Source of the DNA: an uncultured archaeon
Lineage (GTDB): Archaea; Asgardarchaeota; Lokiarchaeia; Sigyniarchaeales; SOKP01
Reading direction: 5' to 3'
Assembly: GCA_964486045.1 (NCBI GenBank)
Contig: CAZALK010000006.1
Span: 96,001 to 160,000 of the forward strand
Length of the DNA stretch: 64,000 nucleotides
Shown here piece by piece: positions 48,953 to 51,430 of the stretch. The notes below the pieces were generated by a model, which had not been told where the DNA came from, searched no databases, and saw nothing but the letters and a program-made list of their open reading frames with translations. Position 1 is the first letter of the stretch; every line of letters begins with the position of its first letter. Position numbers and translations under genes: made by a program.

Positions 48953-49390
48953 TTACTCCCATAATTCAAGAAAATCAAATTCTGAAAATGCGTTAATTCG
49001 TGGAAAATGCTTTTTATCCTTTGTTATTAAAATAATCTTGTTGGCGATTGCTATAGAAGCATTTAATAAATCAAATTGAGGCACTCGCATCCCGCTTCTG
49101 TCCAATTCCGCACAAATCTCTCCATATATTTTACTAGAATTTGAATCTAATGTTTTTATTTCGGAAAGATTAGTGATAAAATTATTTAATTTTTTTGCTT
49201 CAACAATTTGTTTCTGTTTTGATTTTAGAGTATAGACTCCGTACCACAATTCACATGAAGTTAAATAAGTAATCGTTAAATCTGTTCCTTGTGATATTAA
49301 ATTTTTGATTTTTTTTTCTACTTTTGAATCATTTCCTCTCAAAAAATCAATAGCTATATTTGTTTCTACTATTTTAATCATTCTTTCCAC
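48953..49390 (-). CDS. vapC: PIN-domain toxin (VapC family)
   Basis: IVETNIAID, ELWYG, FDLLNASIA, LITKDKKHF. Confidence 0.88.
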   Translation of the reverse strand: MERMIKIVETNIAIDFLRGNDSKVEKKIKNLISQGTDLTITYLTSCELWYGVYTLKSKQKQIVEAKKLNNFITNLSEIKTLDSNSSKIYGEICAELDRSGMRVPQFDLLNASIAIANKIILITKDKKHFPRINAFSEFDFLELWE

Positions 49391-50549: not shown

Positions 50550-50554
50550 GGAGG
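50550..50554 (+). promoter_or_regulatory. Shine-Dalgarno site of the histone gene
   Basis: GGAGG 8 nt upstream of ATG 50563. Confidence 0.7.
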
Positions 50555-50562
50555 AAAAAAAA

Positions 50563-50856
50563 ATGGCAGGTTCTGAATATATTAGTTGGAGTCCTATTAG
50601 GCGTCTTATGAAACTATAATAATCGACTGGATTATTTCTTCAAAATAATGGCGCTTTAATCGTTGCTCGTGATGCAGTTAACGAGCTCGTTGAATGGATG
50701 GGTAGTTCCGCTGAGAAACTTACTAAAAATGCTTTAGTTTTAACTAAACACTCTAAAAGAAAGAAAATCACGAGTTTCCTTTAGAATTCCTAAAAAAGCG
50801 TGAAAAATGATATTCTTTTAGCGATTAAATACTTCAAATCAGTTAAAATAAGCTAA
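50563..50856 (+). CDS. Archaeal histone (77 aa after removing two 30-nt introns): join(50563..50614,50645..50774,50805..50856)
   Basis: Spliced product MAGSEYISWSPIRRLMKHNGALIVARDAVNELVEWMGSSAEKLTKNALVLTKHSKRKKITRNDILLAIKYFKSVKIS has histone-fold hallmarks (PI.RLMK..GA..V, H.KRK.I...DI.LA); intact RBS and poly-T terminator. Confidence 0.88.
50615..50644 (+). other. Putative BHB/BHL-type intron 1 of the histone mRNA (30 nt)
   Basis: Central helix TGAA/TTCA, 3-nt bulges ACT and AAA, inner stem AATAATC/GATTATT, outer exon stem; carries in-frame TAA TAA. Confidence 0.8.
50775..50804 (+). other. Putative BHB-type intron 2 of the histone mRNA (30 nt)
   Basis: Central helix CACG/CGTG, 3-nt bulges AGT and AAA, inner stem TTTAG/CTAAA, distal exon stem CTAAAAGAA/TTCTTTTAG; carries in-frame TAG and TAA. 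Confidence 0.82.
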
Positions 50857-50878: not shown

Positions 50879-50896
50879 TTTTTTTTTTTTTTTTTT
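50879..50896 (+). terminator. Oligo-T archaeal terminator after the histone gene
   Basis: T18 run 22 nt after the stop codon. Confidence 0.6.
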
Positions 50897-50944: not shown

Positions 50945-51430
50945 TTACTCCCATAATTCAAGAAAATCAAATTCTGAAAATGTGTTAATTCGTGGAAAAT
51001 GCTTTTTATCTTTTGTTATTAAAATAACTTTATTTGAAATTGCTATAGAAGCATTCAATAAATCAAATTGAGGCACTTGCTTCCCACTTTTATCTAAATC
51101 CGCGCAAATTTCGTCATAAATTTTACTAGAATTTGAATCTAATGTTTTTATTTCGGAAAGGTTGCTAATAAAACTATTTAATTTTTTTGCTTCAACAATT
51201 TGTTTCTGTTTAGATTTTAGAGCATAGATGCCGTACCACAATTCACCTGAAGTTATTTGAGTTATTGTTAAATCATTTCCCTGTGATATTAAATTTTTGA
51301 TTTTTCTTTCTACTTTTTCAAATATTTCTTGAATAAATTTTTTTGCCTTTTCAGGTGAACCTTTTGAAATATATTCAGATATAGCATCGAGGTCTAAGAG
51401 AGCGTCGGTAGACCATTTTATGTCAACCAT
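50945..51430 (-). CDS. Chimeric ParE/RelE N-terminus fused to a truncated VapC (PIN) copy
   Basis: First about 40 aa are ParE-like (IKWSTDALLDLDAISEYISKGSPEKAKKF); the remainder is nearly identical to 48953-49390 from KVE onward. Confidence 0.75.
   Translation of the reverse strand: MVDIKWSTDALLDLDAISEYISKGSPEKAKKFIQEIFEKVERKIKNLISQGNDLTITQITSGELWYGIYALKSKQKQIVEAKKLNSFISNLSEIKTLDSNSSKIYDEICADLDKSGKQVPQFDLLNASIAISNKVILITKDKKHFPRINTFSEFDFLELWE

Follow-up and report, generated by a model that had tools for sequence, protein, structure and literature searches.

A probable relaxed tRNA-type intron in the pre-mRNA of a histone gene from a Lokiarchaeia archaeon

Introduction

An intron with a bulge-helix-bulge (BHB) motif was reportedly described in the cbf5 pre-mRNA by Watanabe in 2002, and cbf5 is, to our knowledge, the only case in which endonuclease-type splicing within an archaeal coding sequence is known by experiment. 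This intron is found in Desulfurococcales and Sulfolobales, its motif is often relaxed, its splicing has been shown experimentally, and the relaxed motif is tied to a hetero-oligomeric endonuclease with an extra loop (Yokobori 2009, PMC2738675). Here, we analyse a histone-fold gene (50563-50856, + strand) within a 64,000-nucleotide window of DNA from a Lokiarchaeia archaeon (positions 96001-160000 of contig C6 of the assembly here termed G000). The gene is a small open reading frame (ORF) interrupted twice, and its first insert (50615-50644) is probably a genuine tRNA-type BHB intron in the pre-mRNA of a major histone, cut as a relaxed substrate of the hBH class and with its exons joined by RtcB. 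In this class the outer helix (h) and the central helix (H) are present, the other flanking helix (h') being absent beside the bulge.

As in the cbf5 case, intron 1 would be a tRNA-type intron located within protein-coding sequence, with a relaxed motif and a host that encodes a loop-bearing hetero-oligomeric endonuclease. On the contrary, the host is here an Asgard archaeon and the gene that of a histone; each gene has two introns, the paralogues together offer four intron positions, intron length is 30 nt (31 nt in one copy), and the genome contains many mRNA introns of this kind, of which those of the histones are one case. A second close system is ARMAN-2 pre-tRNA-Cys 59/60, an hBH tRNA intron studied as a mini-helix substrate, whose type of cleavage requires a splicing endonuclease (EndA) with a specificity loop (PMC5829648). 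Intron 1 resembles it in combining a 4-bp H with h while lacking an adjacent h', and departs from it in retaining a 7-bp hairpin two mismatches away, in placing the 5' site within an internal loop instead of an open or terminal one, and in its mRNA context. Regarding the enzyme, the (alpha-beta)2 EndA of Aeropyrum pernix (PDB 3P1Z, 3AJV) likewise combines a catalytic subunit carrying a 'KPR' loop with a His-less subunit encoded elsewhere. Differences are that the Asgard beta subunit is closer to the subunit of the M. jannaschii homotetramer (1A79, E 4e-24) than to crenarchaeal beta, and that the G000 alpha subunit contains a GVKG insert. Unlike in these described systems, splicing is here predicted from sequence, from which alone the G000 enzyme is also known.

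Literature searches directed at introns of the BHB or endonuclease type, whether of histone, Asgard or protein-coding genes, yielded no published BHB intron in an Asgard protein-coding gene. An Asgard histone gene that needs two splices would add to the case for routine mRNA splicing by the tRNA machinery in this lineage. Moreover, the hBH-type intron 1, the loop-bearing EndA and an exon helix built by codon choice amount to a 65-nt RNA and two small proteins, a system suited to a biochemical test of how far relaxed-motif recognition reaches in Asgard archaea.

Results and Discussion

Gene organization and borders of intron 1

The G000 assembly is archaeal and comprises 5.18 Mb at roughly 33% G+C, with 99% completeness and 7.8% estimated contamination. 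In its unspliced reading frame, the gene appears as a histone fold split by two 10-codon stretches with two stops in each, and a message translated without splicing would stop after 18 codons. Exon 1 (50563-50614) encodes MAGSEYISWSPIRRLMK plus the first base of a His codon and is followed by intron 1 (50615-50644), 30 nt long and containing two in-frame TAA codons. Then come exon 2 (50645-50774), intron 2 (50775-50804, also 30 nt) and exon 3 (50805-50856), which ends in the stop TAA at 50854-50856, all of them on the + strand. A ribosome-binding site, GGAGG (50550-50554, + strand), was read from the sequence 8 nt upstream of the ATG at 50563 and is kept in all homologues. An intron-free homologue, 92% identical to the spliced product, matches PF00808 (archaeal histone) with an E value of 1.5e-8, and the G000 product, once spliced, is co-linear with this homologue, thus qualifying as a histone fold.

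Alignment to intron-free homologues from sister genomes leaves one exact 30-nt gap at 50615-50644, between AAAC and ATAATGG, and a second gap that corresponds to intron 2. The first gap is unable to slide because its flanking bases differ. Upon excision, C50614 and AT at 50645-50646 form the CAT codon of His18, a residue invariant among homologues, and shifting the border by one base in either direction produces Asn or Leu instead. Uninterrupted copies of this histone type read MAGSEYISWSPIRRLMKHNGA...KRKKITRNDILLAIKYF, and this applies to nearly all other copies of the genus among the matches listed. The borders drawn by alignment (C50614 and A50645) coincide base for base with the cut sites given by the BHB rule. 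Comparison thus supports the predicted splice sites 50614/50645, which the first-pass annotation of this DNA had placed at these same positions. Within the 54 genomes of the genus, intron 1 is carried by G000, G068 and G019 only, among the matches listed.

Other readings of the insert were considered and rejected. An alternative register with H formed by GAAA/TTTC would define a 25-nt intron, shifting the frame and leaving no exon helix. A recoded stop or a translational bypass was discarded considering that the TAA precedes a run of 18 T (50879-50896, downstream of the stop TAA of the gene) and that His18 is rebuilt only by the BHB register. A weak DNA match of the intron in another genome (G010:C9) falls within an ORF of the opposite strand that has no interruption, and was attributed to chance. 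Assignment of the region to a tRNA or to a known RNA family was also dismissed, both the tRNA scan and the Rfam scan of the window yielding no match.

The motif of intron 1 is relaxed on its 5' side

In the register that the comparative borders impose, H shows all four pairs, formed by TGAA (50609-50612) and TTCA (50639-50642). It is flanked by the 5' bulge ACT (50613-50615), with a predicted cut after C50614, and by the 3' bulge AAA (50643-50645), with a predicted cut after A50644 at what constitutes a canonical 3' site. These are two 3-nt bulges on opposite strands, and cutting after the second nucleotide of each yields the correct mature sequence and an open frame. The outer exon helix h, with its 5' strand at 50599-50608 and its partner at 50646-50656 (U50649 bulged), includes GCGTC/GGCGC and TTA/TAA and consists of 10 bp, namely 3 bp, the bulged U and then 7 bp. 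On the intron side, two mismatches, A50616.C50638 and U50617.U50637 (50616-50617 opposite TC at 50637-50638), separate the 5' bulge from a distal hairpin (50618-50636), made of a 7-bp stem, AATAATC (50618-50624) with GATTATT (50630-50636), and the loop GACTG (50625-50629). All these elements, from the outer stem to the hairpin loop, had been described in the first-pass annotation and were found where it had located them.

For classification, a helix was counted, as is usual, only if at least two contiguous standard pairs adjoin the bulge. Under this rule h is present, since it offers the contiguous pairs needed beside the 3' bulge, and H is present as well. On the contrary, h' shows two unpaired positions followed by seven pairs, no pair adjoining the 5' bulge, in 3/3 orthologues, and the motif therefore fails as a strict hBHBh' and belongs to the relaxed hBH class. 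Instead of a terminal loop, the 5' site occupies a 5x2 internal loop that the 7-bp stem closes. The earlier description of intron 1 as relaxed thus stands, hBH being the more exact label and 'BHL-like' acceptable only loosely.

Chance expectation was evaluated for this geometry. Loose BHB geometry is met at thousands of sites per intron length in G000, with no peak at any length. Being so common in an AT-rich genome, shape alone proves little. In genome-wide counts of BHB by length, chance matches swamp the signal and no usable peak emerges. At a fixed position and for a length of 30 nt, a canonical-class BHB (H 4/4 and one flanking helix) has a frequency of 0.0073, and the full intron-1 geometry one of 2.6e-6, equivalent to 27 sites on both strands of the 5.18 Mb. 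In the case of intron 1, the position was fixed beforehand by independent evidence, the homology gap at 50615-50644.

Conservation of the intron stems and origin of the exon helix

Intron 1 was compared among its three close orthologues (G000, G068 and G019), which share 91-97% identity. All 21 pairs of intron 1 are retained in the three of them. Variation within the intron is limited to four sites, all inside the 5-nt loop, the other 26 positions, including the 14 bases of the hairpin stem, being invariant. In the exon helix, the sole change converts U50604.G50651 into C-G in G068 and G019. No stops or frameshifts interrupt the exons in the three assemblies, which represent three species.

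Helix h shows 10/10 pairs in the intron-1 genes scored (G000 and G019, with G068 identical to G019 here). The two nearest relatives reach 7-8/10, and a further 22 intron-free homologues only 2-5/10. Homologues with a weaker h encode the same Arg-Arg-Leu...Asn-Gly-Ala residues through other synonymous codons. It is thus because of the synonymous codon choices made in the intron-bearing lineage that h reaches 10/10 only there. The intron may have come to rest where the sequence was already permissive, or codon usage may have been adapted to it; in both cases the exon helix belongs to the element. The requirement for splicing can, as this gene shows, leave its mark on coding sequence. This helix is also the strongest exon helix among the four intron positions of the family, and it makes up for the h' missing in intron 1.

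Splicing enzymes and proposed route

Only two matches to PF01974 are present in G000, both EndA paralogues of about 200 residues. The alpha subunit (L001:1168-1770, 201 residues, catalytic Y119, H150 and K181) has its best PDB match in the A. pernix counterpart (3P1Z_B; E 1e-33 over 155 residues), the match including the loop 'KPR' and the catalytic His. The loop segment GSPLGINKPRLEYF aligns with GQPLDVEKPRGADF, so that K59 corresponds to A. pernix K44, the lysine of the specificity loop. In Promethearchaeota orthologues, K59, H150 and K181 are kept in 60/60 and Y119 in 59/60, and the EndA gene of G000 is 72-86% identical to genes from assemblies deposited mostly under Promethearchaeota/Promethearchaeia, the Asgard archaea of Lokiarchaeia type. 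In the second paralogue (L002:1207-1806, 200 residues), Ser occupies the position of the catalytic His. With one catalytic and one His-less subunit, as well as the loop lysine, the G000 EndA is, judging from these sequences, an (alpha-beta)2-type enzyme with the L1/Crenarchaea-specific loop. RtcB is also encoded in G000.

This classification agrees with the earlier expectation that the host should encode a broad-specificity EndA, a prediction that carried little risk, as an (alpha-beta)2 EndA with the L1 loop had already been published for Asgard archaea (PMC5829648). In vitro, HBh' and hBH substrates alike are cleaved by the A. pernix enzyme, which bears the loop, and an hBH mini-helix is fully cut by it in 15 min, remaining uncut by alpha'2 or by loop-less (alpha-beta)2 enzymes (PMC5829648). 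We infer that the loop lysine makes the relaxed site of intron 1 cleavable.

Regarding the alpha subunit, G000 shows a four-residue insert, GVKG, at residues 44-47 (L001:1297-1308), immediately ahead of the specificity loop. None of the 59 aligned relatives has this insert, which looks like a duplication of VKG.

In the route here proposed, the 10-bp h would stack on the 4-bp TGAA/TTCA helix, so that the 3' site, between AA and A, is presented in a 3-nt bulge of canonical form. The 5' site, between AC and U, would be offered in the 5x2 internal loop closed by the 7-bp hairpin, in the hBH manner and with no adjacent h'. The (alpha-beta)2 EndA with its loop lysine would then cut after the second nucleotide of each bulge, and RtcB would ligate the exons, giving rise to the His18 CAT codon and, once intron 2 is likewise excised, to an open histone frame of 77 codons.

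Intron 2 and the other introns of the histone family

In intron 2, H is formed by CACG (50769-50772) and CGTG (50799-50802), the bulges are AGT and AAA, and the junction, AG joined to A, restores a conserved Arg. This intron is relaxed on the other side, with only 1 bp of exon helix beside the 3' bulge. At the same site, G007 shows TACG/CGTA, a compensatory change with respect to CACG/CGTG, and in G019 (locus L004) a C-to-A change at the position matching 50799 leaves H with 3/4 pairs. The U.G pair beside the 5' bulge of intron 2 is U-A in G068 and G019.

Four intron positions are found in the histone family, of which 12 intron copies were examined. Positions b and c occur in a G000 paralogue on contig C12 and in G061 and G077, and position d, that of intron 2, in G000, G068, G019 and G007. 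The paralogue (C12:112703-112975, locus L023) has two 30-nt BHB inserts, one after NGAV and the other after KHSK, both at positions shared by G061 and G077. H shows 4/4 pairs in 11 of the 12 copies and 3/4 in the remaining one, and every predicted product is a consensus histone. At position b, H displays compensatory changes (GGCT/GGCT versus AGCT/AGCT versus AGCT/GGTT). The copy of position c in G077 is 31 nt long, the others being 30 nt, and shifts the frame unless excised; in-frame read-through is therefore impossible. The 3' bulge, cut between AA and A in 11/12 copies and between AA and G in 1/12, is far more uniform than base composition predicts, and the 5' bulge is variable across the 12 copies. 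At the three positions other than that of intron 1, at least two Watson-Crick or G.U pairs stand beside the 5' bulge and h is weak or offset, in the HBh' manner.

Both G000 genes of this histone type (at least 84% identity to the query) are interrupted by introns, and because of this G000 would be without this histone type in the absence of splicing. Most of the 54 genomes of the genus have at least one uninterrupted copy among the matches listed. In a sister genus, a histone match (G160:C95:10503-10739) is about 27-30 nt longer than expected and free of internal stops; the extra stretch could represent either an insert devoid of stops or a true insertion.

Similar inserts elsewhere in the genome

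The sole RNA polymerase A' gene of G000 (Rpb1 domain 1; C13:44100, locus L124, about 1713-1742) contains a strict BHB insert of 30 nt that includes a TAA and splits the motif GHFGH-IELARPV between its two halves. As the only gene for this subunit is interrupted by a BHB insert, the organism must splice such inserts, and the need for one splice in this gene would strengthen the case for routine splicing. Further 30-nt BHB inserts with in-frame stops between long open frames, as judged by eye, are located at C1:759270, C5:195270, C7:186753 (- strand), C18:43582 (- strand) and C4:229665, the genes with such inserts including a SelD-like and a PurM-like one. The SelD-like gene contains in addition a TGA in frame, close to its N-terminus, which probably encodes Sec. 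Only when the genome scan required an h' of at least four pairs and long flanking open frames was the length of 30 nt modestly enriched, with 28 matches versus 9 at 27 nt and 19 at 33 nt.

With the covariance model, only 25 tRNA genes scored above threshold in G000, about half of them with inserts, and ARAGORN performed no better. The tRNA inserts fit a heavy load of non-canonical introns. Application of the 30-nt BHB rule to tRNA-Leu (C1:524508) and tRNA-Ala (C1:626230) gave, in an approximate check, tRNAs of normal length; rebuilding of the interrupted tRNAs on the basis of ARAGORN was too ambiguous to provide a distribution of intron lengths.

A broader scenario can be drawn, which we consider rather improbable as a whole: the inserts of ~30 nt might be a population of BHB introns spreading in Loki-type Asgard archaea and settling where the exon supplies one flanking helix, the codon-tuned exon helix of intron 1 having come to stand in for the intron helix and left a weak 5' site.

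Folding, selection and alternative explanations

Several aspects weigh against splicing of intron 1 as a relaxed hBH substrate: (i) its cleavage and ligation are deduced from sequence comparison and computation; (ii) TGAA/TTCA is invariant in the three orthologues, hence covariation speaks neither for nor against H; (iii) in the minimum-energy fold the outer stem and the hairpin are kept without TGAA/TTCA, leaving an 8x8 internal loop; (iv) the BHB conformer lies 1.8 kcal/mol higher, its four H pairs showing probabilities of 0.07-0.10 (about 0.1, the three orthologues alike); (v) non-canonical pairing of A.C and U.U may make the site less relaxed than pair counts suggest; (vi) dN/dS values among the three orthologues are 0.25-0.60, based on only 6-10 substitutions, a number insufficient as proof of purifying selection; and (vii) G000 is a metagenome assembly with an estimated contamination of 7.8%, yet the insert is found in three separate assemblies. 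The folding of the 65-nt stretch is in itself favorable (-15.7 kcal/mol, z = -4.2, with 0/200 shuffles as good). Of the structure put forward in the first-pass annotation, it thus recovers the outer stem and the hairpin, the central TGAA/TTCA helix appearing at only about 10% occupancy.

The two mismatches bear on whether the intron, even if real and spliced, is functionally relaxed at all. If A.C and U.U stack, the 7-bp stem would reach the 5' bulge and the substrate would behave as an ordinary hBHBh', an explanation that would account for the invariance of both mismatched positions in the three orthologues, in which the loop varies at 4/5 sites, and that is geometrically possible, as a symmetric 2x2 mismatch should allow helix continuity. 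On the contrary, nearest-neighbour folding leaves the mismatches open, with H at about 10% occupancy, and at the other three positions of the family the 5' bulge is adjoined by Watson-Crick or G.U pairs, intron 1 being the exception by the counting rule. Altogether, we regard an ordinary hBHBh' substrate as unlikely.

The low occupancy of H might also be taken to mean that intron 1 is the slow step of maturation, acting as a splicing-dependent gate on histone output, in line with the rate-limiting and regulated step suggested in the first-pass annotation. Its computed H probability of about 0.1 in all three orthologues compares, for intron 2 of G000, with 0.16 when 20-nt flanks are included and 0.91-0.95 with 40-nt flanks, and for position b with 0.29-1.00; in addition, an unspliced message would end after 18 codons. 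Nonetheless, this occupancy is the sole hint of such a role. Intron 2 is relaxed too, lacking an exon helix beside its 3' bulge and showing H with 3/4 pairs in G019, the difference of only 1.8 kcal/mol can be paid by protein binding, the loop-bearing A. pernix enzyme cuts hBH completely in 15 min (PMC5829648), and nothing in the analysis points to a regulator. A regulatory gate at intron 1 is thus very improbable, and the suggestion is not sustained.

Finally, the dN/dS values, not clearly below 1, would be compatible with a decaying gene copy disrupted by small hairpin insertions, from which nothing is spliced. Intron-bearing copies are moreover rare (7 genes in 6/54 genomes of the genus, among the matches listed), and G019 also holds an intron-free copy of the same histone type. 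Against decay, neither stops nor frameshifts disrupt the exons in the three species, the BHB rule holds to the base for the borders at four positions, stems are conserved with the loop left free, and synonymous codons build h. Furthermore, G000 is without an uninterrupted copy of this histone type among the matches listed, and its single essential rpoA1 gene bears the same kind of insert. Decay is therefore barely credible, and the preferred explanation continues to be the relaxed hBH intron described above.

Minor features of the locus

The C-terminus of the histone differs among the orthologues, ending as KYFK-TAA in G068 and G019; in G000 this TAA is replaced by TCA, which adds five codons (KSVKIS; 50836-50856). 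Downstream of the gene, an ORF on the - strand (50945-51430, 161 residues) joins a ParE-toxin-like N-terminus to a PIN domain, and a second PIN ORF is located at 48953-49390.
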